A stretch of 64,000 nucleotides of DNA from Candidatus Bathyarchaeia archaeon (GTDB lineage Archaea; Thermoproteota; Bathyarchaeia; Bathyarchaeales; Bathycorpusculaceae). The stretch lies in contig JBNIDR010000007.1 in NCBI GenBank assembly GCA_050108155.1, positions 4,592-68,591 of the forward strand. The letters run 5' to 3'. The notes below the pieces were generated by a model. The model ran no database searches and had not been told where the DNA came from. It was given only the letters and a program-made list of their open reading frames with translations. Shown in pieces: positions 5,493-20,759 of the stretch. Position 1 is the first letter of the stretch. The number at the start of each line of letters is the position of its first letter. The position numbers were made by a program, and so were the translations under genes.

Positions 5493-5956
5493 GACTGCGG
5501 TCTCCGAAAAACCAAGCCGCTTCCAGGCTTCGCCACGATTTCGCCTTCATCCATAACTAACTCGCCGTTCACGAAGGTCTTCAAGGGATTACCCTGCATT
5601 TCCCATTTGTCAAACGGTGAAAATTTAGCTTTCGACTTAAACCGTGAAACGTCAACCTTGAATTTAGCGTTAAAATCCACAACCGTCAAATCCGCGTTTT
5701 TTCCTTCCTCCAATTTGCCCCTATCTCTTAGATGGAAAATTTCAGCTGGCTTCTCACAGAGCACCTCAAGCACCCGCGCAAAAGTTACCCTATTCTTATG
5801 CACCGCCGTCAGCATCAGGGGCAATGTCGTTTCCAAACCTGGCACTCCAACTTTAACTTCCCAGACGGTAGCGGCGTCTTTCTCCTGCAAGGCATGCGGG
5901 GCATGGTCAGAGCCTATTGTATCTATTGTGCCATCGTTGAGTGCTTTCCAGAGCCC
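5489..5956 (-). pseudogene. pyrC: Dihydroorotase/allantoinase-family gene, C-terminal fragment only
   Basis: LWKALNDGTIDTIGSDHAPH..GVPGLETTLPLML..GKNADLTVVD..SKAKFSPFDKWEMQG; similarity stops near 5955; the N-terminal part with the HxH metal site and NPPLR motif is absent. Confidence 0.85.
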
Positions 5957-5970
5957 CAGTAAACTCTCAG
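5944..5970 (+). repeat. 3' half-copy of the BHB structured element, at the pyrC breakpoint
   Basis: CTTTCCAGAGCCC-CAGT-AAA-CTC matches the 3' arms of copy 1 (TTCCAGAGCCC-CAGC-AAA-CCC) and copy 2 (TTCAGGGTTC-CAGT-AAA-CCC). Confidence 0.8.
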
Positions 5971-6154
5971 TAAGAACGATTGTTTTTGTTTTGCTTTCTG
6001 TTTGTGATTGCCTTGGAGTGTTGTTTATATTTTCAAATAATTTTGGGTGATATTTTTCGTACTTACGATAGGTGAGTGCGGCTTATTAGGCATATGGAAC
6101 TATCGTGTTTCGATTTACCCGAGAGGTATGATCAAAAAAATGGAGAGAAAACAA

Positions 6155-8674
6155 TTGAGAAATTTGTTAGTGAAAAATTCTAAGAGCAATATGTCGGCGA
6201 CATGCATATTGATTCTGATTTTCGCTATCGGCACCACAATCAGCGTTATACCTAACGCGGCAGCACATGACCCCTCATGGGATATCCCCACGTGGACGTA
6301 CCTGAGCGTTTCCCCCAGCCCAATAGGCGTAGGTCAACAAGCCTTCGTCATAATATGGCTCAACGTTTGCCCGCCAACAGCTAACGGACAATACGGCGAT
6401 AGATGGCAAGACCTCACCGTGTCAGTTACCAAACCCGACGGAACAACCACAACCCTGGGACCATTTACATCAGACCCTGTAGGCTCCGCATACACGACTT
6501 TCACACCTGACCAAGTAGGCGTATACAGCTTCCAAGCTAACTTCCCCGGACAAATACTCACAGGCGCCAACCCCAACCCTGCAGGTTACCCCGCAGGCTC
6601 ACAATACACTGACTACCTCGGCGACAACTTTTTAGCTAGCACCAGTGCCGTCATCACGTTGACAGTCACACAGGACGCCGCACCTTCATGGGCGTCTTCC
6701 CCTGTGCCAACCAACGAGTTCTGGTCCCGCCCAATCAACGGTCAAAACAGAGAATGGGCTTCTATAGCAAGTGACTGGCTAGGCGGCAGCGCAATCTCCG
6801 GCAAGTACCAACCATACGGACTGGCACCCGACAGCGGACACATTCTTTGGGCTAGACCCCTAACCTTCGGTGGACTCACTGGAAGCCAATTTGGCGACAT
6901 CACCTACTACGACGGTTTATCATACGAAAGCAAGTTTCCCTCGCCCGTAATCATCCAAGGACGACTATACTACAACGAATACCCCACCGCACGATACTCT
7001 ATCGACAAATACCCACCCGGATTCTACTGCGTTGACTTAGCCACAGGCGAAGTTCTATACTGGAAGAACGCCACAATAAGCTTTGGTCAAACCTACGATA
7101 TAGAAACACCAAACGAACACGGAACAGTCTCCTACCTATGGAGCACATCGCGCACTACATGGCACATGTTTGACCCATTCAACGGCAACGACCTCTGCAC
7201 CATAACCAATGTTCCTTCAGGCACGCAGGTAACTGCCAGTGACGGCAGCATCCTCATCTACCAACTTGGACCCAAAAACGCATGGCTTGCATGCTGGAAT
7301 TTAACCACCGCCATAATGTACCACTCAATTGCCGCAGGCAGCAACTATTACTGGAACTTCAGACCTGAATTCGGCGCAACCTACGATGCGGTTAATGGGT
7401 ATGATTGGAATGTTACGTTGAACGGTGTTCCTAGTGATGCGTATGTGATGGGAACTGATTCTGGTATTCTGCTTATGACTACCGGTTTAGCGACAGGAGC
7501 AGCAGGCGTAGGAATCGGAGGAACCCCCTTAACATACACGCAATGTGGAATCGGCCTCACTGGTTCAGATGTAGGCAAGGTAATCTGGTCAACCACCAGA
7601 AACGCTCCATCTGGAAACGTAACCATCACCTATGGCACAGAAGGCAGCGGCGTCTACGTTATGCGCGCAAAGGAAACCATGCAATGGTATGGTTATAGTG
7701 TAACTAACGGCCAAGAACTCTGGGGACCAACTGATTCGCAGGGACCATGGGATGTTTACGGCATGGGCGGCAACATTGCAGGCGACGTGCTCTATTCATG
7801 TGGCTACTCCGGAATTCTCTATGCATACAACATTCACAACGGCAACCTTTTGTGGTCATACTCAAGCGGAAGTGGCGGATTTGATGTCTACTACGGCAAC
7901 TACCCCCTCAGTCTTGGCGCAATCGCTGACGGCAAAGTCTACCTTTACAGCAGCGAACATTCCCCCTCTAAACCCGCGTGGCGTGGCTCATCCATAATCT
8001 GTGTTGATGCAAACTCTGGCACTGAACTTTGGCGTGTCCAAAACTGGGCAAACGGCATCATGGTCGCAGACGGCTACCTTGTTGACCTTAATTCATACGA
8101 CAACCAAATCTACTGCTTTGGCAAAGGACAAACCGAAACCACAGTTACTGCACCTAACATCGCAGTACCTGCAGGAACAACCGTTCTGATACAAGGAACA
8201 GTCACTGATCAGTCTCCAGGCAATCCAGGAACACCCGCCATTTCCGACGCCAACATGGACGAATGGATGAACTACCTCTATTCACAGCAAGCCAAACCAC
8301 AAAACGCCCAAGGTGTACCAGTGCACTTGACAGCTGTTGACCAGAACGGTCAAACATATGAAGTCGGCACAGTGACAAGCGACATGAGCGGCCTCTACAG
8401 CATAACATGGACTCCAACCGCTGAAGGAAAATACACAATCAAAGCTGAATTCGCAGGCTCCAACTCGTACTATGCTTCCTCAGCAGAAACCGCTTTAGCC
8501 GTCAGCTCCTCAGCATCCGCAAACGTAAACCCAGCGCCGCAAACTACTCAAACGCCTCCACCAGTCGACGCCCCACCCGTAGAAACCCCGATGACCACAT
8601 ACCTTGCCATAACCATAGCAGTCGTAATCATCCTCGTGGTTGCAGCAGCACTTGTCCTCAGGAGACGCAAATAA
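6155..8674 (+). CDS. Secreted PQQ-like beta-propeller protein with C-terminal membrane anchor (paralog 1)
   Basis: Signal peptide; repeats such as AIADGKVY, ADGYLV; P/T-rich linker, TM helix, RRRK tail; likely start TTG 6155 after GGAGAG. Confidence 0.85.
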   Translation: MRNLLVKNSKSNMSATCILILIFAIGTTISVIPNAAAHDPSWDIPTWTYLSVSPSPIGVGQQAFVIIWLNVCPPTANGQYGDRWQDLTVSVTKPDGTTTTLGPFTSDPVGSAYTTFTPDQVGVYSFQANFPGQILTGANPNPAGYPAGSQYTDYLGDNFLASTSAVITLTVTQDAAPSWASSPVPTNEFWSRPINGQNREWASIASDWLGGSAISGKYQPYGLAPDSGHILWARPLTFGGLTGSQFGDITYYDGLSYESKFPSPVIIQGRLYYNEYPTARYSIDKYPPGFYCVDLATGEVLYWKNATISFGQTYDIETPNEHGTVSYLWSTSRTTWHMFDPFNGNDLCTITNVPSGTQVTASDGSILIYQLGPKNAWLACWNLTTAIMYHSIAAGSNYYWNFRPEFGATYDAVNGYDWNVTLNGVPSDAYVMGTDSGILLMTTGLATGAAGVGIGGTPLTYTQCGIGLTGSDVGKVIWSTTRNAPSGNVTITYGTEGSGVYVMRAKETMQWYGYSVTNGQELWGPTDSQGPWDVYGMGGNIAGDVLYSCGYSGILYAYNIHNGNLLWSYSSGSGGFDVYYGNYPLSLGAIADGKVYLYSSEHSPSKPAWRGSSIICVDANSGTELWRVQNWANGIMVADGYLVDLNSYDNQIYCFGKGQTETTVTAPNIAVPAGTTVLIQGTVTDQSPGNPGTPAISDANMDEWMNYLYSQQAKPQNAQGVPVHLTAVDQNGQTYEVGTVTSDMSGLYSITWTPTAEGKYTIKAEFAGSNSYYASSAETALAVSSSASANVNPAPQTTQTPPPVDAPPVETPMTTYLAITIAVVIILVVAAALVLRRRK

Positions 8675-8675
8675 C

Positions 8676-8694
8676 TCCTTTTTCTTTTTTGTTT
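8676..8694 (+). terminator. Oligo-T archaeal terminator candidate
   Basis: TCCTTTTTCTTTTTTGTTT right after the stop; similar T-tracts follow paralogs 2 and 3. Confidence 0.55.
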
Positions 8695-8712
8695 AGTTGG
8701 CAGAAAAATCGT

Positions 8713-8808
8713 GGGCTGAATGGGCTCTGGAAATGATTTCCAACTTGCTCGTTGGATCGTTCATTTTCTCTCTCCTTAAGATTTCCGTTCCAGAGCCCCA
8801 GCAAACCC
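8713..8808 (+). ncRNA. Conserved structured element, copy 1, with BHB motif
   Basis: GCUG/CAGC central helix, AAU and AAA bulges, 11-bp inner stem GGGCUCUGGAA/UUCCAGAGCCC, apical UCCAAC/GUUGGA hairpin, unpaired UCUCUCCU. Confidence 0.7.
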
Positions 8809-8833
8809 GTGGCATCTCCAGAAAGTAATATTT

Positions 8834-9691
8834 TCACTGTAGTGGCAATAAATAATTTTCTCTTTCGCTCTTTATGGTTGTTTTCTTAGGCAGTTCTGTG
8901 TTGTCTTTGGATGCTTTGTTCCATAGTACTTCAAAATATTTTTGAAGTGTTGCAACAAGACACGGGTTGTCTGAAAATAAACTTGGTGCTTCCAGCGAGT
9001 GCTTTGCTGCTGGCGCGATGCATAAGGTTACTTGTTTTCCGTCTTCAATTCTTATTGAAGTAGGCGGTTGGGTTGGTATGTGCCTTAGTTCTGCCCAGCC
9101 TTTCTTCTTCCAAGTCTGAAAGATTTTTGGGGTGGCCTCTCCTTTTTTTGGTTTGTCGGTTATGTATCGGAACTTTACGTTTCTTTTTGCACCTTTTTCT
9201 ATTTGCTCGGCGTAAACCAAAATGCAGTACTTGAAACTATCCCAAGAGTCAATAACGTCTACGTTTCTCATGGTTCTGTTCGCCCCCTCGTTTACCCTGC
9301 GGGTGTTTGCGTCTTTTGTGGTTATCATTACAAACTCTGATTCGTTTAACGTTGTATTTTCTAGATTGTTTCTTGTAAAATTGTCAACTAACTCTTCAGC
9401 TTTCTGTTCGTTTTCATTCTGTTCCTCTGCTTTTTGCTTTAGTAAATGGGCGACCCCGTCTTTTATTGAGGTGGGTTTATACCTGTTTGGTTTGGCTATT
9501 ATTTTTTCTACAAGTCCCTTTTCTTGAAGTTCGGTGAGTATGCGGTAAACGTCTTGTGAAGCTACGTTAGCTGTCTTAGCCGTTACTCTTCCTGTTGCAG
9601 GACCTATTGTAATGAGTGCCAAGTAGACTTTTGCCTGCAAAACCGTAAGCCCTAAATTAACTAATGTTTGAATTGCGTCCTCAATTTCCAT
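8834..9691 (-). CDS. TrmB-family transcriptional regulator
   Basis: LGLTVLQAKVYLAL..DVYRILTELQEKGLVEK wHTH plus C-terminal PLD-like effector region; divergent from paralog 2. Confidence 0.85.
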   Translation of the reverse strand: MEIEDAIQTLVNLGLTVLQAKVYLALITIGPATGRVTAKTANVASQDVYRILTELQEKGLVEKIIAKPNRYKPTSIKDGVAHLLKQKAEEQNENEQKAEELVDNFTRNNLENTTLNESEFVMITTKDANTRRVNEGANRTMRNVDVIDSWDSFKYCILVYAEQIEKGAKRNVKFRYITDKPKKGEATPKIFQTWKKKGWAELRHIPTQPPTSIRIEDGKQVTLCIAPAAKHSLEAPSLFSDNPCLVATLQKYFEVLWNKASKDNTELPKKTTIKSERENYLLPLQ

Positions 9692-9883
9692 CTCTTCTCT
9701 CCTTCTACTTATTATTCAAAATTTACATATAAGGTTTTAAAGATTAGCAAGCGGCCAAAAGAATAACTTGAAACCGAACTTTTTCGGTCACCTTTTGAAC
9801 TTATTGGTAGTCGGGCGACTTACTGGGCGTTCTTAAATATTTTTACGTTTCCTGTATGGACTCATATAACGGAGAGAAAAAAA

Positions 9884-12445
9884 ATGAGGAATAATTCTAA
9901 AAACTTGTTTTTGGAGAAAAAAACACGCTTTGCGTTGATGACCTTGTTTCTGATGCTGACTATTACAGCGACTGTCTTTACTTTGCCGCTTGCTGCTGCT
10001 CATGAACCTGCATGGACGATTCCAACCTACGCATACATAAGTGTCGCGCCAGACCCCGTCGGAGTTGGTCAAACATGCCTCATTGTTTTTTGGCTTAACC
10101 AACTGCCAGCTTCTGCAGCGGGTCTAGGCGGTGACCGCTGGCGAAATCTAACAATTGACGTCGAAAAGCCTGACGGATCCACAACCGTTTTGGGGCCATT
10201 CGTTTCCGATCCAGTCGGTTCCTGTTACGCTCAATTTACGCCTGATCAGCCTGGCACATACACTTTGACATTCATTTTCCCTGGTCAGGTAGCTTCCTTA
10301 TATGGACCCACTGGAATTGCTGGTTCTAACAGCGCCTACGTCAACGATACGTACGTGGCGAGCAGCGCAACAACAACGTTAACAGTGCAGGCAGATGCTG
10401 TACCATACTTACCTGAATATCCGCTTCCAACCGAGTACTGGTCACGCCCCGTAGAAGGACAGAACTTAGCATGGGCTAGCCTTGTTTCAAACTGGCTAGG
10501 GACTCCACAGATTGTAGCAAAGCTGCAACCCGACGGCATAGCTCCTGGTAGTGCCCACGTCATGTGGACAAAGCCCATTTCATTCGGAGGGATTGCTGGA
10601 GGCCAATACGCCACTGACAATGCTATGCCCTACTATTCAGGAACTGCATATGAAGGCAAGTTTGGGTCGCCACTGATTTTGTACGGACGACTCTACTACG
10701 ATTTACCACAAAGCAACTCCCGTTCAGGTAATGGCTATGTCTGCGTGGACCTTCAAACAGGTGAACAAATTTACTGGCAAAACATGACAGCGCCAACCTT
10801 TGGGCAACTCTACGATTACGAGTCAATGAATCAGCACGGTATAATTCCCAATGGGTATCTATGGAAGAGCGTTACCGACGCCGCCAACGGTGGCACGGTA
10901 TGGATGGCTTATGACCCAATGGATGGCAACTGGTTGTTCAACGAAACCAATGTTCCCAGAGGCACACAAGTTTATGGTCCAAACGGCGAAATACTCATCT
11001 ACCAACTTGACTACGAAGGACGCTGGCTTGCTTGCTGGAACAACACCGCTGCACATGAATTAACAAACTCCAGAGACCCAACTGATTTAACCAGCAGTAA
11101 CTACTATCAATGGAGACCCCTCGGCAAAAACGTCAACGCAAGCGACGCATACTCATGGAACGTAACTATACCTGATTTGCCCGGAGTAAACCCTCCAGCA
11201 ATTGCGACTATTATTCAAGATGATGTGATGGTTGGCACAAGCAGCACCATGGGTGGTCTTTTAGCCGCTGGAACTCCAGATCCTTACACGATTTGGGCTA
11301 TCAGCTTGAAACCAGAAAATAGAGGACAACTGCTGTGGATCAAAAACTACCCCGCGCCTATGGACAACCTAACGCGTTCAATTGCCCAAGTAGACCCAGT
11401 AACCAGAGTCATAGCGATCTTAGAGAAGGAAACACTATGTTACTACGGTTTGAGTTTAGATGATGGAAGTGAACTGTGGGGTCCAACTCCGCGGGAAGCT
11501 GACTTCAACTACTACGCTGATGTTGGTCTACCACGCAACAACCTCGCTTATGGTCGACTTTACTCAGTAGGCTACGGCGGATTCTGCTATTGCTATGACC
11601 TTACAAACGGTGATTTACTTTGGACTTATGAAGCACCTGCCGGCTTTGCAACACCTTACGGACGCTACCCACTCGGTATAGGCGCAATCGCTGACGGCAA
11701 AATCTACTTGTTCTCCACTGAACACTCTGCAAACTCGCCACTAACTCCCGGCGCAAAGGTACGTTGTGTAGATGCATACAGCGGAGACGAAGTGTGGAGC
11801 ATATTCTCCTACGGAACACAGAACGGCATGGCAGTTGCAGACGGCTATTTGGTTTTCCTCGACCTGTATGACATGCAAATTTACTGTGTTGGTGAGGGAC
11901 CAAGTGCAACTACCGTAACTGCACCGCAGTCAGCCGCACCACTAGGAACCCCCGTATTAATCACTGGCACAGTCACCGACCAGACACCCGCCAACATAGG
12001 CACTGCAGCAATATCAGATGCAGACATGACCGCTTGGATGCAATACCTGCACATGCAAAAACCGCTTCCAGAAAACGCTAAGGGCGTAGAAGTAACCCTA
12101 ACTGCAACAGACCCTAACTGCAACGTACACACAATCGGAACCGTCACCAGCGACATCGGCGGTAGCTATGGCATTTCGTGGACTCCACCTGTTGAAGGTA
12201 CATACATGATTAAGGCCACCTTTGGCGGCACGGAATCTTATGGCAGTTCCTATGCAACAACATATCTACTCGTTGGGTCAGCTGCATCAGCATCGTCAAC
12301 TGTTCCATCTTCGTTGTCTCCTTCGCCCTCTGTTGCTCCTTCACCCAAAGAAAATCCAAACACAACTGTATACATCGTTGTCGCCGCAGTAGTTTTGATT
12401 GCAGTAGTCGCCGCAGTAGCCTTGATTCTTAGAAGGCGCAGATAA
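9884..12445 (+). CDS. Secreted PQQ-like beta-propeller protein with C-terminal membrane anchor (paralog 2)
   Basis: 853 aa; same motif series as paralog 1 (YWSRP..GQN, YEGKF, IADGKIY..EHS, GTVTDQ); TM helix and RRRR tail. Confidence 0.85.
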   Translation: MRNNSKNLFLEKKTRFALMTLFLMLTITATVFTLPLAAAHEPAWTIPTYAYISVAPDPVGVGQTCLIVFWLNQLPASAAGLGGDRWRNLTIDVEKPDGSTTVLGPFVSDPVGSCYAQFTPDQPGTYTLTFIFPGQVASLYGPTGIAGSNSAYVNDTYVASSATTTLTVQADAVPYLPEYPLPTEYWSRPVEGQNLAWASLVSNWLGTPQIVAKLQPDGIAPGSAHVMWTKPISFGGIAGGQYATDNAMPYYSGTAYEGKFGSPLILYGRLYYDLPQSNSRSGNGYVCVDLQTGEQIYWQNMTAPTFGQLYDYESMNQHGIIPNGYLWKSVTDAANGGTVWMAYDPMDGNWLFNETNVPRGTQVYGPNGEILIYQLDYEGRWLACWNNTAAHELTNSRDPTDLTSSNYYQWRPLGKNVNASDAYSWNVTIPDLPGVNPPAIATIIQDDVMVGTSSTMGGLLAAGTPDPYTIWAISLKPENRGQLLWIKNYPAPMDNLTRSIAQVDPVTRVIAILEKETLCYYGLSLDDGSELWGPTPREADFNYYADVGLPRNNLAYGRLYSVGYGGFCYCYDLTNGDLLWTYEAPAGFATPYGRYPLGIGAIADGKIYLFSTEHSANSPLTPGAKVRCVDAYSGDEVWSIFSYGTQNGMAVADGYLVFLDLYDMQIYCVGEGPSATTVTAPQSAAPLGTPVLITGTVTDQTPANIGTAAISDADMTAWMQYLHMQKPLPENAKGVEVTLTATDPNCNVHTIGTVTSDIGGSYGISWTPPVEGTYMIKATFGGTESYGSSYATTYLLVGSAASASSTVPSSLSPSPSVAPSPKENPNTTVYIVVAAVVLIAVVAAVALILRRRR

Positions 12446-12498
12446 ACAACAAACAACACCTTTCTTTTTTTTGTTTTCAAAAAGAAAATCGGAGAACT

Positions 12499-12598
12499 TT
12501 AGGGGCTGAGTGGGCTCTGAAGAAAATGATTCCAACTTGCTTGTTGGGTATTCATTCATCTCTCCTAAAATCGCTTTCAGGGTTCCAGTAAACCCTAA
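12499..12598 (+). ncRNA. Conserved structured element, copy 2, canonical hBHBh'
   Basis: Outer UUAGGG/CCCUAA, central GCUG/CAGU, bulges AGU and AAA, inner GGGCUCUGAA/UUCAGGGUUC with three G-U pairs. Confidence 0.75.
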
Positions 12599-12894
12599 TT
12601 TCTCTGAAACAGCAAAACTTGCCCTCAGCAAATTTTGTCTAAAAATTTGAGTTAATGTTTTTTGTGGTATAAACGTTAGTTTTCCTGTGTACGTTCGGTT
12701 TGATTTATTGTCTCTCTGTGTCGTGTTTTCGTGTCTTCCCTCTTTTTTCTTAAGACCCAATTTGGGCTGTTTTTCCGATTCAGATCTTGATTTGAGCGTA
12801 AACTGCGTCTGGAAAGGGTGGAAACGGCAGAAAATGGGTGAAATGTGGAAATGGGCTTTCTTTTTGGATTTGTGCTGTGCTAATTTTTGCAGGT

Positions 12895-13713
12895 TTATTT
12901 CTCTTGTGCTTTTTGCCACATTTTTTCGAAGTATCCTTGTGCCATGGCAACTATGACTGGGTTGTTTGATGTTAAGCTTGGTTTTTCATGTAAATTGGAT
13001 GCTGGGCCAGTAAGCATGTATGCTTCTTTTTCATCAATTACTCCAAACTGCGAAGCAGTACGAGACTTTGTGTATCTAATGTTAAACGTGCCTTTTTGGT
13101 TTAATTTTTTGATAGCTTCCAGTATGTTGGTCGGAATTTTTTTTTCTTCACTATTGCAGACTATAAGACGGAATTTTACGCCGGTATCTAGTAGTTTTCG
13201 AGTTGTTATTTCTGTTCCGTCTAAAATTTTTAGTATGTAGCGGCAAAAGCTTTCGGGACATATAAAAATGCCGTCATAGGTTGCTTTGATGTTTTTGAAA
13301 AGCTTTGCAAATATCCGCATATTCGCTTCTTTACCTTCTGTAAGCACGATTCGAGATTCCTCATTTTGCACTACTCTGTCCAATTCTTGTTGCTTGATAT
13401 TCTCAATTTTCTTTCTTGTTTTTTCCTCAAATTCCCTAAACTCTTCGATTCTGCGTTCAAATAATATTTGCATTCCTTCGCGTAAGGGAAGGGGGTTGAA
13501 AAAGTTTGGTTTTGAGACGATTTTTTGAACTAATCCCATTTCTTGGAGCTTAGCGATTATCTGATAAGTGTGTGCTCTGTCTATTCTAGCGTTTTCTGAG
13601 ATTGCTTTTATGGGTGCGTTGCCAAGTTTGTTGAGAACCAAGTAAATATTGATTTGTAGCTTGGTAAGTCCAAGTTCCGTCAATATCTCATAGCAATCTT
13701 CTTGGACTGTCAC
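12895..13713 (-). CDS. TrmB-family transcriptional regulator
   Basis: LGLTKLQINIYLVL..IDRAHTYQIIAKLQEMGLV; paralog of 8834-9691; divergent from paralog 3. Confidence 0.85.
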   Translation of the reverse strand: MTVQEDCYEILTELGLTKLQINIYLVLNKLGNAPIKAISENARIDRAHTYQIIAKLQEMGLVQKIVSKPNFFNPLPLREGMQILFERRIEEFREFEEKTRKKIENIKQQELDRVVQNEESRIVLTEGKEANMRIFAKLFKNIKATYDGIFICPESFCRYILKILDGTEITTRKLLDTGVKFRLIVCNSEEKKIPTNILEAIKKLNQKGTFNIRYTKSRTASQFGVIDEKEAYMLTGPASNLHEKPSLTSNNPVIVAMAQGYFEKMWQKAQEK

Positions 13714-13849
13714 CTGTCTCTCTCCTAGTTGCCTGAATCTGTAGATTATAAGATCGAAACTTAAATTTTGTGTTAGTGCACGTATGCACTCGCCAGTTTT
13801 TAAAAATCTTCAAAACCATCTCCATAACATAAAAAATGGAGAGAAAAAA

Positions 13850-16456
13850 TTGTACAAAAAATTTGATGCTGAAACAAAAAATAAAACGATTTTTCTGACA
13901 ATTGCTTTGATTCTGATGCTAACTTCGCCTATGCTAATGATGAGCATGCCTACCGCAGAAGCTGCAGATTACGATACTTACGCCTACCTTGCCCTTTCCA
14001 CCAATCCCTTAGGAGTAAATCAAAACGTCGTCGTCGTTTGCTGGCTATCCCTACCCCCACCAACCGCCTTCGGAATCGCAGGTGAACAATGGGAAAACTT
14101 GACCGTAACGATTACCACTCCCGAAGGAAAAACAGAAACCAAAGGACCCTATTCTTCCGATGCCATCGGACAGATATATTTCAGCTACGTTCCAACTGAA
14201 ATCGGCTCATACAAGTTTCAATTCCACTTCCCAGGACAGCTAAGCCAAAACGGAAACTACTACAATCCAAGCGACAGCCCTATAGTATCGCTAACTGTAC
14301 AGCAAGAACAAATAGAACCCTACCCCTACACCCCCATTCCTGACTCAAACACCTACTGGGAACGTCCGATAAACGGCCAAAATCTCATGTGGACAACCTT
14401 TTCAGGGAACTGGCTTGGATTAGGTTCCGCGTCTTTCGGTTCTAGAGCATTTGATTCCTCGTCAAACTACGGCAACTTTAACCCCTACACCGCAGCACCA
14501 AATACCGCACACATAGTCTGGACAAAAGAAAACGGGTTTGGCGGCATAATAGGCGGGGAATACAGCGACCCACCAACATACTACACAGGAAACTCCTACG
14601 AAGCACAATTCACTCCACCCGTAATCATCAACGGAGTCCTATACTATAACACTGCAATTCCCCCCAAATATGGATTCCAAGCAGTAGACATTAGAACTGG
14701 AGAAACACTCTGGTTCCAAAACAGCACAGGACAACAACCAGACCCACAAATTTGCACTGGAACACTTGGAGGCATATATTGGCCTGGAATAACCAACGGT
14801 CAAGTATTGAATTACATAACCGAGAACCAGTACGGCGGCATCCCATATCTTTGGAATACAGCGGGCTCCGTGTGGTCCATGTATGACGCCTTCACTGGAA
14901 ACTGGATACTCAACCTAGCAAATGCAAGTGTATCATCGCCGAATTTCGTTACAGATGAAACAGGTACCTTGTTCACGTACCAAATGGGTGATTCCTGGTT
15001 AGCTATGTGGAACTCAACCAAAGCGGTTCCAACATCAACGACAATACCTGGCTACCGAACTTGGAGACCCGTCACGGGCAGCACAACTGACTGGAGAAAT
15101 GGAATGGAATGGAACGTAACATTAACGACAGCAGTACCTGGTCAATCAATTGCTAGAGTAAGCTCTGACATAATCCTCGCTACTTCCTCAAGGGATGCAG
15201 CTCCAGGCACGCGACTTGAAATTGGTTATGACGCAAAAACAGGAGAGCAACTTTGGATTAAGAACAGAACCCATCTCATTCCTGGCTCAAACAACTATAA
15301 CCTTCAAGGACCTATGGCTGAAGGAGTCTACACTGAATATGTGCAAGAAGAGCAAGCATGGTACGGTTTTAGCGCCTTGACAGGGGAACAACTGTGGGGA
15401 CCAACTGAAGCAACTTCTAATGCATGGAGCATGTACAACACTGGGTCCGCAATAGCTTACGGCAAACTCTATTCACTTTGCTTTGATGGACTACACGCCT
15501 ATGACCTAACCACTGGAGCGCACCTATGGGATTTTGCAGCTTTAAGCAGTGGAGTACAAACAATATACGGTATCTGGCCCTTTGACCTTGGCAGCTTCAC
15601 AATAGCTGACGGAAAAGTCTACATTGCAGTAGGGCACTCACACGGAGTTTTACCACAATTTGCAGACGCAGAAATGTTCTGCATCAACGCCACCACAGGC
15701 GAAGAAGTTTTCAGCGTTCTAGGTTGGATGCAAGACGGTTGGACAAACGCACCAGCAGTTGCAGACGGCTACCTAGTAACCGAGAACGGCTATGACAAGC
15801 AAATATACTGCTTTGGCAAGGGACAAACCGAAACCACAGTGTCATACGAATCGGTAATAGGCAGCAGCACAAGCGTTCTAATCAAAGGCTCTGTAACAGA
15901 CCAATCTCCTGGACAAACTTGTCTTGGAATTCCCGCAGCAGGCACCCCAGCAATTTCTGACGACTGCATGAGTGAGTGGATGGAGTATCTGTATATGCAG
16001 CAGCCCAAACCAACTGAAGCAACAGGCGTTTCGGTGCATTTGACGGCTATTGATCCTAACGGTAACTTCCAAGACATAGGCACAGTAACCAGCGACATGG
16101 ATGGCAACTTCGCGGTAGAATGGACTCCCCCTGTTCCAGGCGTCTACATGGTAAAAGCATCGTTCGAAGGTTCTGGTTCGTACTTCAAATCCTACGGAAC
16201 AACGTCGTTTGCTATATCTGAGCCTTCAGCAGCCTCCGCGTCAATTTCGTCTCAGCTGACTCCAACTCCGCCACAAACAGCAGCCGCGGCATCACCATCG
16301 GTTCCATCGACGCCCGCACAACCTGAATCACCCTCGCCTTCAATAGCCCCGCAACCATCAAGTGAAACACCCGTAGCCATTTACATCACCATCGCAGCAG
16401 CCGTTATTGCAGTAATTGTCGTTGCAGCAGCAATTGCACTAAAAAGAAAAAAATAA
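13850..16456 (+). CDS. Secreted PQQ-like beta-propeller protein with C-terminal membrane anchor (paralog 3)
   Basis: Same motif series; likely start TTG 13850 after GGAGAG; P/S-rich linker, TM helix, KRKK tail. Confidence 0.85.
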   Translation: MYKKFDAETKNKTIFLTIALILMLTSPMLMMSMPTAEAADYDTYAYLALSTNPLGVNQNVVVVCWLSLPPPTAFGIAGEQWENLTVTITTPEGKTETKGPYSSDAIGQIYFSYVPTEIGSYKFQFHFPGQLSQNGNYYNPSDSPIVSLTVQQEQIEPYPYTPIPDSNTYWERPINGQNLMWTTFSGNWLGLGSASFGSRAFDSSSNYGNFNPYTAAPNTAHIVWTKENGFGGIIGGEYSDPPTYYTGNSYEAQFTPPVIINGVLYYNTAIPPKYGFQAVDIRTGETLWFQNSTGQQPDPQICTGTLGGIYWPGITNGQVLNYITENQYGGIPYLWNTAGSVWSMYDAFTGNWILNLANASVSSPNFVTDETGTLFTYQMGDSWLAMWNSTKAVPTSTTIPGYRTWRPVTGSTTDWRNGMEWNVTLTTAVPGQSIARVSSDIILATSSRDAAPGTRLEIGYDAKTGEQLWIKNRTHLIPGSNNYNLQGPMAEGVYTEYVQEEQAWYGFSALTGEQLWGPTEATSNAWSMYNTGSAIAYGKLYSLCFDGLHAYDLTTGAHLWDFAALSSGVQTIYGIWPFDLGSFTIADGKVYIAVGHSHGVLPQFADAEMFCINATTGEEVFSVLGWMQDGWTNAPAVADGYLVTENGYDKQIYCFGKGQTETTVSYESVIGSSTSVLIKGSVTDQSPGQTCLGIPAAGTPAISDDCMSEWMEYLYMQQPKPTEATGVSVHLTAIDPNGNFQDIGTVTSDMDGNFAVEWTPPVPGVYMVKASFEGSGSYFKSYGTTSFAISEPSAASASISSQLTPTPPQTAAAASPSVPSTPAQPESPSPSIAPQPSSETPVAIYITIAAAVIAVIVVAAAIALKRKK

Positions 16457-16520
16457 CACCAATGCTACCAAAACCAACCCTTTCTCTTTTTTTTTAAAAA
16501 CAAGTTAAGAAAGACGAAAA

Positions 16521-16603
16521 CTGGGGCTGAGTGGGCTCTGGGAGATTTGATTTCCAACTTTACTGTTGGTTTTCATTTCTTCTCTCCTATGTTCCTTTCC
16601 AGA
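16521..16603 (+). repeat. Structured element copy 3, lacking its 3' arm
   Basis: GGGGCTG-AGT-GGGCTCTG..TCCAAC..GTTGG..TCTCTCCT..CTTTCCAGA, then unrelated coding sequence. Confidence 0.8.
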
Positions 16604-16984
16604 AAAAGCTGAAGAGGCCACTTCAAAGTTACCATTTCCATTCAACGCTCCCCAATTACTATTATCCAAGATATCCAATGCAGATTTGTTGTATGCTGCC
16701 TCAACACCGCCAAAAATAACGTTTTGAGCAACATGGGTAGTGTATCCGATTGTGAATTTATCGTTGGGATAATATGTTCCATCAGGGTTGATTGAGGGTT
16801 TACCATATTTGTCAAGAAGTGGACCAAAAGCAGATATCGTTACGTTTATTTTTCCTTGATCGCCCGACCCGTCAGCTACAGTGGCTAAACCCTGAGAAGC
16901 AACAACAAACAAACTTGAAGCTATAGATAAAAAAATCAGCAGCCCCGACAAGAAGGCGGCAGTGGTTTTACAAGTTCGTCTCAC
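16604..16984 (-). pseudogene. 5' fragment of a secreted-protein gene, truncated at element copy 3
   Basis: Signal peptide and globular start (MRRTCKTTAAFLSGLLIFL..) run into the element at ..ASSAFSGK; the rest of ORF 16505-16984 is read from the element. Confidence 0.6.
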
Positions 16985-17543
16985 AACTTTCCCCTCCAGC
17001 TTTGCCAGTTAGCTGATATCTTTGCATTTTAGTCTCAAGTATTATCTCCTTAACATCGGTGGGACGCTTCACACCTTTGAGCAGAACACTTTGAAAGGAT
17101 ACACTGTTACTTCTCACCGTGACCGTTCCAAAGTTGAATATTCTACCTACAGCTCCCTGCGAAACAAAAACATCAGATATTTTATCCACAGGGATTTCCT
17201 GGTATTCAGCTCTTATGAAATGACGTTCGGTTGAGACGACACGTTCTGAGACAACGTAAGTACTAGATCGGCCATGATAGTAACCAAAGTTCATTAACAA
17301 TACTGCGATGCCTAATCCTAAAGCCTGAAGCCAAAACAAAGGTTCGTTTGGAAAAAGTATCATGCTGAGAATTGAGGCAATTACGATGGCCATTCCGCTC
17401 GTAAATGACGAAGACGTTAAGACGGCTGGTTCACCTTGCCAAACAATCATATCCAAATATTCAACACCAAGCACGAGTATTATTGAAGTTTTAAAAACAA
17501 CCAAAAGTTTAGAGTGAATACACGCATATGCGTTTCTTAACAA
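16968..17543 (-). CDS. Membrane protein with bacterial PH domain
   Basis: Two TM helices then YVVSERVV..RAEYQEIPVDKISDVFVSQGAVGRIFNFGTVTV. Confidence 0.75.
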   Translation of the reverse strand: MLRNAYACIHSKLLVVFKTSIILVLGVEYLDMIVWQGEPAVLTSSSFTSGMAIVIASILSMILFPNEPLFWLQALGLGIAVLLMNFGYYHGRSSTYVVSERVVSTERHFIRAEYQEIPVDKISDVFVSQGAVGRIFNFGTVTVRSNSVSFQSVLLKGVKRPTDVKEIILETKMQRYQLTGKAGGESCETNL

Positions 17544-17594: not shown

Positions 17595-18860
17595 ATGAAT
17601 GAAGAACAAGAATCGGCGTGCTGGATTGAAGTAAAGCCTCTAATCTCTGCGGAATTAAAATCAGGAAATTTCTCAGGAATCTTGGAGGCGTTATTCAACT
17701 CTGCGAAGCCGTTCAAGTTTCTTGTCGTGGACACCGAGGATAAAAATGTCATCAACAGACAGCTTGTTAGATTTTTTATACAATTTCCAGATGAACAAAC
17801 CATGAAACAAATGTCCAATGTTGCACGAGCTTTTTTAAGCATCGAAGTAAGTACAACTCAGCCTCCAAAAAGGCAGTACCAACGCCACGCTGATCTTGAA
17901 CTAGCTAAAAATTATGCTCTGCCCATTTGTAATTTCCAAGAAAAATCCGATATTAACTTGGTTGATAGAATAGTGGCTACCATCGCAGGATCAAATACAG
18001 CAATAGAAATAACTGCTCTTGGTGATCCGAAAGCAGCAGTTGATATTGAAAACTTCATTTACGAAAAAATTTATCACAAACCAAACATGGGAAAAGCCCT
18101 ATCAGACCAAGCAGTTGGCGTCTTTTCCCAATTAACTATCCAACCAAATGGGAAAAAGGGAGGCAATGAGCCAGCATTTAACTATAGACAAAGTAAAAAC
18201 GATCTATGGCTCAAGGAATTAACAAAAAACGCTGAATCTAAACTTCACAGCAAGCTCTTCACATGCAACATAACAATTCACGCAGACTCGACGGAGAACA
18301 TACAAGCAACAAAAAATGCTTTGCCAACTGCAGCAAATCGGTTCAAAGTATTCAAAACAGAAAAGCATCCAGCCGGAATCGAAGCACTGCATCTCAAGAA
18401 ACCTTCAAGATATACATTTAGAAACAGTTTGCTAACTCGACTCTGGTGGATTACACCAATAAGCGTTCTTTTACTGGCTAGCCTTTTGGGAGTTTTCAAT
18501 CCACTGCGGTTAATGAATTCTTCCTTTCCTACGGTTGATGTAATACCAGCTGTTTTAGCGGTATTTTTTGCGTTGACTTTCTTTATCGCCTTTAGAAGGC
18601 GTCATCCGATCGTTCTTTCCACACAGGAGTTAGCCCAAATAATTGGTTTACCTACAGCAATCGAGAAGCTTTCAGTAGCTTTAGGGCAGATTCCAACCTC
18701 AAGGATGCAGCTCGGTTCTGACCAGAGCTCGTCATCTAAAAACAAAGGAAGTGAAGAGGTTCCAAATCTTAAAGAAAAAGAACAAGTTAAGAAAGTAAAC
18801 CCTGCGCTATCTCTTCATAGCCTTCCAGCTTTTGAACCTGACAAAGAAGAAAGGTCTTAA
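17595..18860 (+). CDS. Hypothetical membrane protein
   Basis: 421 aa ORF with two C-terminal TM segments. Confidence 0.65.
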   Translation: MNEEQESACWIEVKPLISAELKSGNFSGILEALFNSAKPFKFLVVDTEDKNVINRQLVRFFIQFPDEQTMKQMSNVARAFLSIEVSTTQPPKRQYQRHADLELAKNYALPICNFQEKSDINLVDRIVATIAGSNTAIEITALGDPKAAVDIENFIYEKIYHKPNMGKALSDQAVGVFSQLTIQPNGKKGGNEPAFNYRQSKNDLWLKELTKNAESKLHSKLFTCNITIHADSTENIQATKNALPTAANRFKVFKTEKHPAGIEALHLKKPSRYTFRNSLLTRLWWITPISVLLLASLLGVFNPLRLMNSSFPTVDVIPAVLAVFFALTFFIAFRRRHPIVLSTQELAQIIGLPTAIEKLSVALGQIPTSRMQLGSDQSSSSKNKGSEEVPNLKEKEQVKKVNPALSLHSLPAFEPDKEERS

Positions 18861-18906
18861 ATCCTGATTTTTAAATGGAGAATTAATTTTTATATGTGGG
18901 ATAAAA

Positions 18907-19644
18907 TTGCAGTTTGAGTTATTGCAATATACTTTTGCGCTTGCTGTTCTGATTTATGCTTCAGTGCTAGATTTCAAAAGTAGAGAAGTTTCAAATCGGA
19001 TTTGGCTTTTAGCGTTTCCAGCAAGCTTTGCATTCTCGATAGTAGCACTTGCTGTAGGTATTCTAAATTTGGAGTTAATGGTCCTCTCTGTTTGTTTTTC
19101 ATTGGGTTTGGGATTAACTCTGTTTTGCTTTGGGTTCTATGGTGGAGCCGACGCCAAAGCCCTCCTTTTTATAGCATTAGCTCTTCCCGCTTATCCAACA
19201 GCATTTAAACCACCAATTGGTGACTTAGCATTTATACCAGTCATAACTGTATTTTTTAATTCAACTCTCCTGAGCATGATCTATCCGATTTCAATCTTCA
19301 CTTTAAATATCAAGGATATTCTGAGAGGGAAAAACCTCTTTCGAGGAATCAATGCCACAATTAAGGAAAAAATTCTCCTTCTTTTTACAGCGCGAAAAAT
19401 TAGCTTGCACAAACTCGATGAGAGTCTATCTTATTTTCCTTTAGAAACAGTAACAGCAACAAAAGAGGGCAAGCTAACTAGAAAAGTTCTGCATTTCATA
19501 AAATCGGAGGAAGATCTTTCCCCATATATTAATAACCTGAAAGAGCATGAAAACATTTTAGGGGACGGAGTGCTTGCAACGCCAACCATTCCATTTATAG
19601 TTTTCATTACATTGGCGTTAGCGTTAATGCCCCTTATCAACTGA
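18907..19644 (+). CDS. Prepilin/prearchaellin peptidase (A24 family)
   Basis: YASVLDFKSREVSN and YGGADAK aspartate motifs; multiple TM helices. Confidence 0.88.
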   Translation: MQFELLQYTFALAVLIYASVLDFKSREVSNRIWLLAFPASFAFSIVALAVGILNLELMVLSVCFSLGLGLTLFCFGFYGGADAKALLFIALALPAYPTAFKPPIGDLAFIPVITVFFNSTLLSMIYPISIFTLNIKDILRGKNLFRGINATIKEKILLLFTARKISLHKLDESLSYFPLETVTATKEGKLTRKVLHFIKSEEDLSPYINNLKEHENILGDGVLATPTIPFIVFITLALALMPLIN

Positions 19645-19687
19645 TAGTACCTTTTGAATTAGCACAAATGAATAATAAACGGTTGGT

Positions 19688-20245
19688 TTAAGCGACGGCT
19701 TCTAATACGTTTCTTTCTGCTAGCTGGTCACAGAATATCTTTACTGTTCGCTTAAGCGTGTCCTCATCGCCTACACCAGAACAGATTAGTTTACCTGTTA
19801 AAAAAACAAGAAACGTGGCTTTTCCCATGTTGTAGACAGCTGCTGGAAATTTGTCTGGCTCGTAAACCACTTTTTCGAATTGCTTTGTAAACTGCTCCAT
19901 AGATATGGAGGCTCCGTTTATGGAAACAGAGGTTACGAGGTTTTTTACGCTGCATTCAAAATTGCAATTGGTCGAAACCAAACTTTTCTCTTTCAAAATA
20001 TTTAGGAACGTGCGGGTTGCTTCTTTGCCTCTTATCTCAGATTTTGTTCCAGTGCAGACGAATTTTCCATTTCTAAAAAGCAAAAAAGTTGCTGGTGAAA
20101 GTTTGGGTTTGAATGATAAACCGGGAAATCTTCTCCAATTGCATTTAGATCCATCTAATTTTGAATGTGCAGCATTGAGGTCGATAGCTTCACTGAAGGC
20201 TCCAGTCATTACGACATTCTGTATTGTAATCTCAACTTTAAACAA
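19688..20245 (-). CDS. tbp: TATA-box-binding protein (divergent copy)
   Basis: Two TBP repeats: IQNVV..DL..RRFPGLSF..ATFLLFRNGKFVCTG and VKNLV..YEPDKFPAAVY..TFLVFLTGKLICSG. Confidence 0.9.
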   Translation of the reverse strand: MFKVEITIQNVVMTGAFSEAIDLNAAHSKLDGSKCNWRRFPGLSFKPKLSPATFLLFRNGKFVCTGTKSEIRGKEATRTFLNILKEKSLVSTNCNFECSVKNLVTSVSINGASISMEQFTKQFEKVVYEPDKFPAAVYNMGKATFLVFLTGKLICSGVGDEDTLKRTVKIFCDQLAERNVLEAVA

Positions 20246-20332
20246 GCTTTAACTACCCTAAAAAATTAGTTTCTGTAGCCTTAAAAAGCCGAAACTATTT
20301 TTGACTCAATGGCCTTGTGAGCTACTGAACTT

Positions 20333-20677
20333 TTATTGTGCCTCAGGCGTTTTTATCTTCAGACCTTTGATCAATTCTTCCGCAAATTTCGCTCCGGCGT
20401 CAAGCTCATGAAACGGTTCATTCGAATTTTGCAAAGATTCTTCAGTCATAGCCTTCTTATCATTAACCTCGGGCATACCAACAGCTTGGTCTGTTTGAAC
20501 AGGCACTCTTTTTTCTTCAATGGCGTTAAAGCCTTCTTCCCCCCATTCAACATCTGAATCAGCGAGTTCTCGCCAGCATTCCCTGCAAATTGGTAGTTTT
20601 TCGCTCCCGACCTGAATGTAAACAACTATGTCGGTGCCTTGGCAGTTTAATTTCAGAGGATTATGACAAACCTCCAT
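20333..20677 (-). CDS. Hypothetical protein with Cys cluster
   Basis: CHNP..C..PICRECW. Confidence 0.55.
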   Translation of the reverse strand: MEVCHNPLKLNCQGTDIVVYIQVGSEKLPICRECWRELADSDVEWGEEGFNAIEEKRVPVQTDQAVGMPEVNDKKAMTEESLQNSNEPFHELDAGAKFAEELIKGLKIKTPEAQ

Positions 20678-20759
20678 GTTATGTACTCTCAGAAAACCAT
20701 TTCTCAGCCTTTTTTAAAACAAGCAAACCTCAAAGAAGTGAGAACTGAAGGCGTATGGA

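Follow-up and report, generated by a model that had tools for sequence, protein, structure and literature searches.

The 18-nt sequence at the centre of this analysis is part of the conserved CU-rich strand of a multi-copy element of about 95 nt, which is closed by a bulge-helix-bulge (BHB) and encloses a variable hairpin and a pyrimidine strand of the form (U/G)CAU-Y5-10-CUCC. Judging from the sequences compared, the variants of this strand follow the initiation regions of surface-protein genes across lineages and not those of genes for TrmB regulators. The match to TrmB genes by which the element first drew attention is genuine, but it is a local one, and a loop directed at TrmB does not characterise the family. 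It is the anti-initiation strand, shared throughout the family, and not the TrmB pairing that makes the element of interest. What appears to be new is a dispersed family of probable, BHB-bounded RNAs whose conserved exposed strand is antisense to the initiation regions of a large family of surface proteins, and no published description of such an element was found in the literature searched.

The window, which is the whole 64,000-nt stretch of DNA analyzed, contains three copies of the element, each placed after one of three paralogous propeller surface-protein genes. The element lies on the same strand as the C-terminally anchored surface-protein gene that precedes it, 50-75 nt downstream and just past a T-run. 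The features of this array are as follows, where SD denotes the Shine-Dalgarno sequence:

5944..5972, + strand: detached 3' arm of element copy 3, CTTTCCAGAGCCC-CAGT-AAA-CTC
6155..8674, + strand: surface protein gene 1, with beta-propeller/PQQ-like and Ig-like domains, a C-terminal transmembrane anchor and a basic tail; SD GGAGAGA, start probably UUG
8711..8810, + strand: element copy 1, intact, 93.7 bits
8711-8714 with 8806-8809, + strand: outer helix of copy 1
8715-8718 (GCUG) with 8799-8802 (CAGC), + strand: central helix of copy 1
8719-8721 (5' AAU) and 8803-8805 (3' AAA), + strand: bulges of copy 1
8722-8730 with 8790-8798, + strand: inner helix of copy 1
about 8721-8804, + strand: predicted excised piece of copy 1, with the cut sites placed by the canonical rule
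8761..8776, + strand: CU-rich anti-initiation strand of copy 1, UCAUUUUCUCUCUCCU
8834-9691, - strand: TrmB1 gene, 285 aa, Pfam TrmB E=1e-14
9686..9703, - strand: TrmB1 SD (AGGAGAGA), spacer, and start codon through second codon
9884..12445, + strand: surface protein gene 2, SD GGAGAGA
12501..12597, + strand: element copy 2, intact, 89.3 bits; central helix GCUG/CAGU, CU-rich strand ending at 12566
12895-13713, - strand: TrmB2 gene, Pfam TrmB E=2e-13
13710..13726, - strand: TrmB2 SD, spacer and GUG start
13850..16456, + strand: surface protein gene 3, SD GGAGAGA, UUG start probable
16521..16603, + strand: element copy 3, 5' part only, 27.7 bits versus 89-94 for the intact copies
16571..16588, + strand: reported 18-mer UUUCAUUUCUUCUCUCCU, comprising the anti-start CAU, the pyrimidine spacer and the anti-SD CUCUCC of copy 3

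The structure of the element was derived from 69 distinct copies at 57 loci, aligned to one model. On the 5' side, the consensus runs GGG, GCUG, A(G/A)N and then (G/A)GGCUCUGG; the variable hairpin follows, and after it (U/G)CAU, pyrimidines and CUCCU; the 3' side consists of CCAGAGCC(C/U), CAGC, AAA and CCC. Base pairing was kept in 93.7% of the cells of this alignment, with double changes at 13 of the 17 pairs, while none of 500 shuffles was as good and slid controls were at most 58% paired. The central helix (GCUG/CAGC) is exactly 4 bp long and is paired in 98.2% of cells. Outside it stands an outer helix, GGG/CCC, of 3-4 bp (85.5% paired), and inside it an inner helix of at least 9 bp (92-97% paired), in which double changes were detected at all nine modelled pairs. 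The 3' bulge is AAA in 69/69 copies, and the 5' bulge is AGA, AGU, AAA or AAU, again in 69/69.

The two bulges, of 3 nt each, are located on opposite strands, and each follows its central-helix strand on the 3' side, an arrangement present on the + strand only and mirrored on the minus strand. The standard for such handedness is the canonical 37/38 geometry of tRNA introns, and the call in favor of the + strand rests on this textbook geometry; as a control, the tRNAs of the genome itself were of little use, with ARAGORN intron calls that were unreliable and a simple 3-4-3 scanner that was too unspecific. A 4-bp helix with flanking 3-nt bulges on opposite strands is also the definition of the BHB motif (PMC7714728), and by its sequence and predicted structure the element qualifies as a putative BHB substrate, a plausible candidate for excision and circularisation. 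The host genome encodes two proteins with an EndA domain (PF01974, 100 and 76 bits) and one RtcB (PF01139, 592 bits). G-U/U-G combinations exceed A-C/C-A in the inner helix (26 vs. 9), as well as over the 15 pairs that remain when the two outermost are left aside (34 vs. 17), a moderate bias of about 2-3 to 1. In addition, the orientation of the element relative to the upstream gene is constant, and its 5' flank (CCCCTTTTTTAGTCTTAAAAAGCAATGGAGAAGAGAT) is conserved, whereas the 3' flank is not. Because of the pairing and covariation, the invariant bulges, the handedness, the G-U bias, the constant orientation and the conserved 5' flank, the element is very probably an RNA on the + strand. Rfam gave no match for the window at the gathering threshold, and for 8600-8900 at E<=10 it gave one chance match only, outside the element.

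In most copies (e.g., L045, L047, L060, and window 12470-12500), the 5' flank carries T-runs on both strands, and it could act as a bidirectional terminator and/or provide a TATA box about 27 nt upstream. The same flank holds a + strand GGAGAA motif, which could pair with the CU-rich strand of the element itself.

When read as its reverse complement, the CU-rich strand consists of an SD, a spacer, AUG (rarely UUG) and part of a second codon, the AUG or UUG being usually followed by CAA or AAA. An SD-like motif stands at normal spacing to AUG in 51/69 copies and to UUG in 5/69, and the CU-rich motif was found in nearly all of about 100 copies examined, with or without a nearby TrmB gene. The mean unpaired probability predicted for CUCC is 0.84, compared with 0.42 for the entire element, while CAU is predicted to be paired in about half of the copies. 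An SD together with AUG or UUG on the minus strand would, however, also be expected of a real initiation region or of an inverted DNA repeat. That the minus strand is the functional one, carrying a true initiation region for a mini-ORF that encodes a leader peptide or small protein, is highly improbable. The SD lies at normal spacing from AUG, or from UUG in five copies, and T-runs follow the element on the minus strand too, as this explanation would have it; but the ORFs vary from 4 to more than 24 codons and pass over the conserved 5' arm in all three frames, only the antisense of the surface gene lies downstream of them, the handedness of the BHB is wrong on this strand, and the G-U pairs turn into A-C mismatches. 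Moreover, in one UUG copy, L036, the partner of CAA is a UUG in the hairpin of the element itself. A minus-strand small protein was rejected, as no conserved peptide, frame or length was present.

To learn which initiation regions the CU-rich strand resembles, about 2479 crudely called gene starts of the host genome were ranked with RNAduplex. For the divergent copies on contigs C6 and C30, surface-protein paralogues accounted for 7 and 8 of the 17 best matches (2479 genes; p 3e-7 and 3e-9, respectively), and the C30 copy matches the start of a surface paralogue on contig C9 perfectly over 21 nt; neither copy preferred its own upstream gene. The strand also varies between lineages together with the genes: the type of the genus, UUUAGGAGAAAAGAAAAUGCAAA, matches genes beginning with AUGCAAA (...AGGAGAAAAAGAAAAAUGCAAA), and the type of the second family, GAAGGAAUGAAAAAAUGAAAAAAC, matches genes beginning with GAAGGUGAAAAAAUGAAAAAAC. 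Within the second-family lineage, the mean duplex energy was -20.6 kcal/mol, against -10 to -15 across lineages. Surface-gene starts were also matched better than other SD-led ORFs at the same loci in genomes G003 (p=0.005) and G052 (p=0.011). The array of the window is where this rule is weakest, since copy 3 places the starts of the propeller genes themselves at ranks of only 82-2040. Genome G275 has many elements of the UCUCUCC type, yet none of its gene starts came within 3 mismatches of the 19-nt consensus, and the pattern search returned only further copies of the element; long perfect targets are therefore not general, and it is possible that only the short anti-SD seed matters. The 3' end of the 16S rRNA, where the anti-SD of the organism would be read, was not found in the assembly.

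It has also to be considered whether the CU-rich strand acts in cis, that is, pairs within its own transcript and controls BHB processing, mRNA 3'-end formation or stability, in which case the likeness to gene starts would be a by-product. The partners proposed are the upstream + strand GGAGAA motif, the GGA..AUGA mimic inside the element, or the mRNA's own 5' leader. In both families, most copies are indeed preceded by a conserved GGAGAAGAGA-like motif at a distance of 5-25 nt, and in many copies an upstream AUGA/GGGAGA stretch pairs with CAU and a portion of the spacer. Against this, several copies of the host genome have only a weak flank motif or none, there is no preference for the start of the element's own gene, and the extension of the match to AUG plus the CAA or AAA of surface genes is left unexplained, which together make a cis role unlikely. 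Pairing of the element with the start of its own upstream gene was rejected, as the ranks of the own start were uniform among the surface starts of the same genome.

Pairing in trans with surface-gene starts is the preferred reading of the CU-rich strand, and the TrmB genes have to be placed in relation to it. The first-pass annotation had described an 18-nt pairing between copy 3 and the TrmB1 initiation region in which both differences were G-U pairs. Sequence and coordinates proved exact: positions 16571-16588 of the + strand read TTTCATTTCTTCTCTCCT, and the TrmB1 initiation region at 9703..9686 (-) reads AGGAGAGAAGAGATGGAA, with its ATG at 9691-9689; RNAduplex pairs the two without interruption over 17-18 positions, including two G-U pairs, with an energy of -26.0 kcal/mol. 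A second pairing, between copy 1 (8761-8776, TCATTTTCTCTCTCCT) and the TrmB2 region (13726..13710, AGGAGAGAGACAGGTGA), was likewise recovered with the 10+6 pairs and the single bulged C that had been proposed, at -20.3 kcal/mol, two of the 6 pairs being G-U. Both genes encode the N-terminal winged-helix domain of the TrmB family (PF01978, 54.4 bits for TrmB1 and 50.2 for TrmB2; cut-off 25.6). The sequence TCTCTCCT occurs 7 times in the window versus 1.9 expected, and of its five + strand matches, three fall in the element copies and two in the TrmB starts. With G-U pairs allowed, a scan of both strands of the whole 2.55-Mb genome found 18/18 sites only at TrmB1 and at the antisense of the element itself; in the same scan, shuffled 18-mers gave an 18/18 site in 2 of 20 trials. 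The TrmB1 match of the 18-mer is correct and not trivial. The further remark that the SD-complementary part also matches the GGAGAGA of the propeller genes was borne out, with GGAGAGA standing before all three of them. The strand had been called an exposed loop, which for copy 3 is true of part of the reported 18-mer only: its 3' CUCCU is predicted to be unpaired (P 0.7-1.0), whereas UCA and UCUUCU are paired in the extended hairpin of the element.

The wider proposal, that each element is a small RNA dedicated to a feedback loop in which it represses translation of the TrmB regulators, has little probability as a description of the family. Two copies speak for it. For copy 3, TrmB1 ranked first and TrmB2 sixth among the 2479 gene starts in RNAduplex, and for the unlinked copy on C26, TrmB2 ranked first and TrmB1 second; the TrmB1 start is the sole genomic 18/18 site besides the element's own antisense. 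The spacing from SD to AUG is also the same in the elements and in TrmB1 and TrmB2, unlike in the propeller genes, and TrmB-like genes recur in divergent orientation beside surface genes. On the other hand, the two intact copies that lie beside TrmB genes gave TrmB starts at ranks 13 and 38 (copy 1) and 27 and 99 (copy 2) only, the best match comes from the truncated copy 3, and TrmB1 and TrmB2 are tandem paralogues, and therefore their two matches represent one evolutionary event.

As an SD, GGAGAGA is rare (about 20 of the 2479 calls), and the genes that carry it include the three propeller genes, TrmB1, TrmB2 and one more TrmB-like gene. The expectation that TrmB starts would stand out from other GGAGAGA genes was borne out in part, since copy 3 and the C26 copy place them above most of the others and copies 1 and 2 no better than the rest. 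Covariation between elements and TrmB starts, the other expectation, was not observed. In the host genome, the curated initiation regions of 9 other TrmB paralogues, several of which stand divergently beside element-bearing surface genes, show no complementarity to their local elements, and those of paralogues beside elements in the C6, C38, C27, C24 and C30 modules are unrelated to them. Elsewhere, complementarity was also lacking in 10 reading-frame matches (8 or 9 genes) and in 3 more, two of which are in G275, the unrelated TrmB neighbour starts being located in G003, G013, G001, G023, G034, G052, G275 and G286. The two TrmB neighbours in G275 have no match although this genome carries the same UCUCUCC element type. 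The TrmB match is judged to be local because of the ranks for copies 1 and 2, the unmatched TrmB paralogues and neighbours, the null result in G275, the tandem paralogy and the half-element nature of copy 3. What stands of the feedback proposal is a conserved and largely predicted-accessible + strand that is antisense to an SD and start, and what does not is a TrmB loop as a property of the family; TrmB1 and TrmB2 may be additional local targets in this array.

Two further candidates were rejected in this connection. TrmB as a family-wide target was discarded in view of the TrmB neighbours without complementarity in the host and in other genomes. The alternative offered with the original pairing, that the motif arose by duplication of a TrmB initiation region, was not sustained either: the similarity ends at 18 nt, and the CU-rich motif is present in nearly all of the approximately 100 copies regardless of TrmB, including copies without TrmB neighbours.

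A TrmB-like gene is divergently oriented beside a surface-protein paralogue at no fewer than seven loci (C6, C24, C27, C30 and C38 of the host genome, G000, and window 8834-13850), which looks like a conserved module of regulator and surface gene. The host genome has about 19 full-length surface paralogues and at least 11 TrmB paralogues.

A covariance model built from six copies was used to examine the distribution of the element. Other copies in the host genome are located on contigs C26, C53, C6, C30, C24 and C14. Among 61 related genomes, 32 contained the element, with up to about 24 copies each, and among 251 genomes sampled across the class, it was detected in 25, which belong to 6 genera, 2 families and one Bathyarchaeia order only. 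At locus L050 (G012:C3), three copies occur within 900 nt (682-793, 1370-1477 and 1501-1585), two of which follow each other at a distance of only about 23 nt, without an intervening gene; because of this pair, elements are considered to occur also in tandem without a surface gene. A pattern search with the anti-initiation consensus detected further copies about 4 kb apart in G275:C20, at about 5494, 9576 and 13871, an array not among the covariance-model matches listed.

The break in copy 3 bears on an explanation at the level of DNA. The 5' part of this copy keeps the outer helix, GCUG, the AGU bulge, the 5' strand of the inner helix, the hairpin and the CU-rich strand, and breaks off between CTTTCCAG and A; when the arm at 5944-5972 is joined to 16521-16603, the full BHB fold is restored. 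A 9-bp core, CTTTCCAGA, is present at both break points (5944-5952 and 16595-16603), which form the edges of a 10.6-kb block of three modules, and a split of this kind is the pattern expected after circular DNA has integrated through an intact element. The SD-AUG-like sequence could accordingly be an inverted repeat of the surface-gene start, with the element serving as a site at which recombination leads to inversion, cassette exchange or integration, in the manner of attC sites in integrons or att sites in tRNA genes. The position of a multi-copy element at the 3' end of each module and the tandem gene-less copies at L050 would suit this explanation as well as the 9-bp core does. Nevertheless, the break falls in the inner helix and not in the SD-like strand, the exact 3-4-3 geometry of the BHB, the invariant bulges and the G-U bias point to RNA, an element is not an identical repeat of the start of its own gene, and no recombinase was linked to the element here; a recombination site is for these reasons rather improbable, a little more so than a role in cis. 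A comparison with attC sites (about 60-140 nt) leads to a similar picture: both are structured, stand at the 3' ends of modules, conserve their fold more than their sequence and have extrahelical bases, and one copy of the element is split as if by site-specific recombination, but neither R''/R' core motifs nor an IntI were seen, and the geometry is that of an RNA BHB.

The explanation preferred here is accordingly one at the level of RNA, namely that the element represents a family of BHB-bounded antisense RNAs, probably excised by EndA and circularised, which would mask the initiation regions of surface-protein genes in trans, with TrmB1 and TrmB2 as possible extra targets. We give it a probability approaching, though still short of, an even chance. 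Conserved structure, handedness, the prediction of accessibility and complementarity at the level of lineages were computed, whereas transcription, cleavage, circularisation, pairing in vivo and the effect on translation are inferred. The + strand of the element would be transcribed by read-through or from the T/A-rich flank, the splicing endonuclease would then cut in both bulges, and RtcB would probably close the excised piece into a circle. The exposed anti-SD seed could pair with initiation regions of the matching type, extending over the spacer, AUG and part of codon 2, and the paired element would block ribosome binding in trans, the family-wide targets being the surface-protein paralogues themselves. 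A more specific version, in which surface genes that are expressed release from their 3' ends an EndA-excised circular antisense RNA that silences their paralogues, and here also the TrmB regulators, is doubtful. If true, Bathyarchaeia would express their roughly 20 surface-protein paralogues in a mutually exclusive or hierarchical manner, through a circuit of surface variation that is based on RNA and built on the tRNA-splicing machinery.

Several known systems resemble the element in part. To our knowledge, BHB motifs outside tRNA and rRNA are known from two mRNAs only; the cbf5 mRNA intron of Crenarchaeota is an archaeal BHB substrate of this kind. In Haloferax volcanii, a 46-nt intron in the 5' UTR of HVO_1309 is a BHB substrate, which is cut by the recombinant enzyme and whose excised piece was detected as a circular RNA (PMC7714728). 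The element shares with the HVO_1309 and cbf5 introns a 4-bp helix, two 3-nt bulges and an mRNA-linked transcript, here a predicted one; it differs from them in being located downstream of the coding region, in reaching up to about 24 copies per genome, in being tied to one gene family and in enclosing an RNA with a conserved anti-SD/anti-start strand. The intronic circular RNAs of tRNAs (tricRNAs) are stable circles that arise by BHB-type cleavage followed by RtcB ligation (PMC4536317). Like these and the archaeal circular RNAs, the element is BHB-bounded and is proposed to form a circle through RtcB ligation, but it is not derived from a tRNA and its proposed function is antisense.

With regard to the mode of action, the trans-acting small RNAs sRNA41 and sRNA162 of Methanosarcina mazei mask ribosome-binding sites and are single-copy, linear and devoid of a BHB. 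The element resembles them in its accessible CU-rich stretch that is complementary to the SD and start of several related mRNAs, and differs in being a dispersed family sited after its putative target gene family. In bacteria, CpxQ, SroC and DapZ are Hfq-dependent small RNAs derived from 3' UTRs, arising either through release by RNase E or by transcription from an internal promoter. There too, a regulatory RNA, putative in the present case, is located at the 3' end of a protein gene and links it to the translation of other mRNAs, whereas release of the element would proceed via the tRNA splicing endonuclease. Bathyarchaeia are abundant in sediments and mostly uncultured, and we know of almost no regulatory RNAs described in them. 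If confirmed, the family would be the first case of tRNA-splicing machinery making regulatory antisense RNAs and would give a starting point for understanding how these archaea select from their many surface proteins; the TrmB match, by contrast, should not be generalised beyond this array.

Some observations were also made in the surroundings of the array and elsewhere in the host genome. A minus-strand ORF at 16505-16984 runs into copy 3 as a truncated gene. Just past copy 3, at 16968-17543 (-) and 17595-23276 of the window, a membrane protein with a bacterial PH domain, an archaeal prepilin peptidase and a VirD4/TrwB-like ATPase are encoded; because of these three neighbours, the array is considered to adjoin a mobile-element-like region. 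The prepilin-peptidase domain, together with the TrmB domains, marks the genome as archaeal and no more narrowly than that. Finally, a tRNA-Trp gene at G000:C35:54804-54942 contains a 62-nt intron with box C/D-like sequences (GGAUGA ... CUGUAGA), which we take to be the familiar guide arrangement of the archaeal tRNA-Trp intron.
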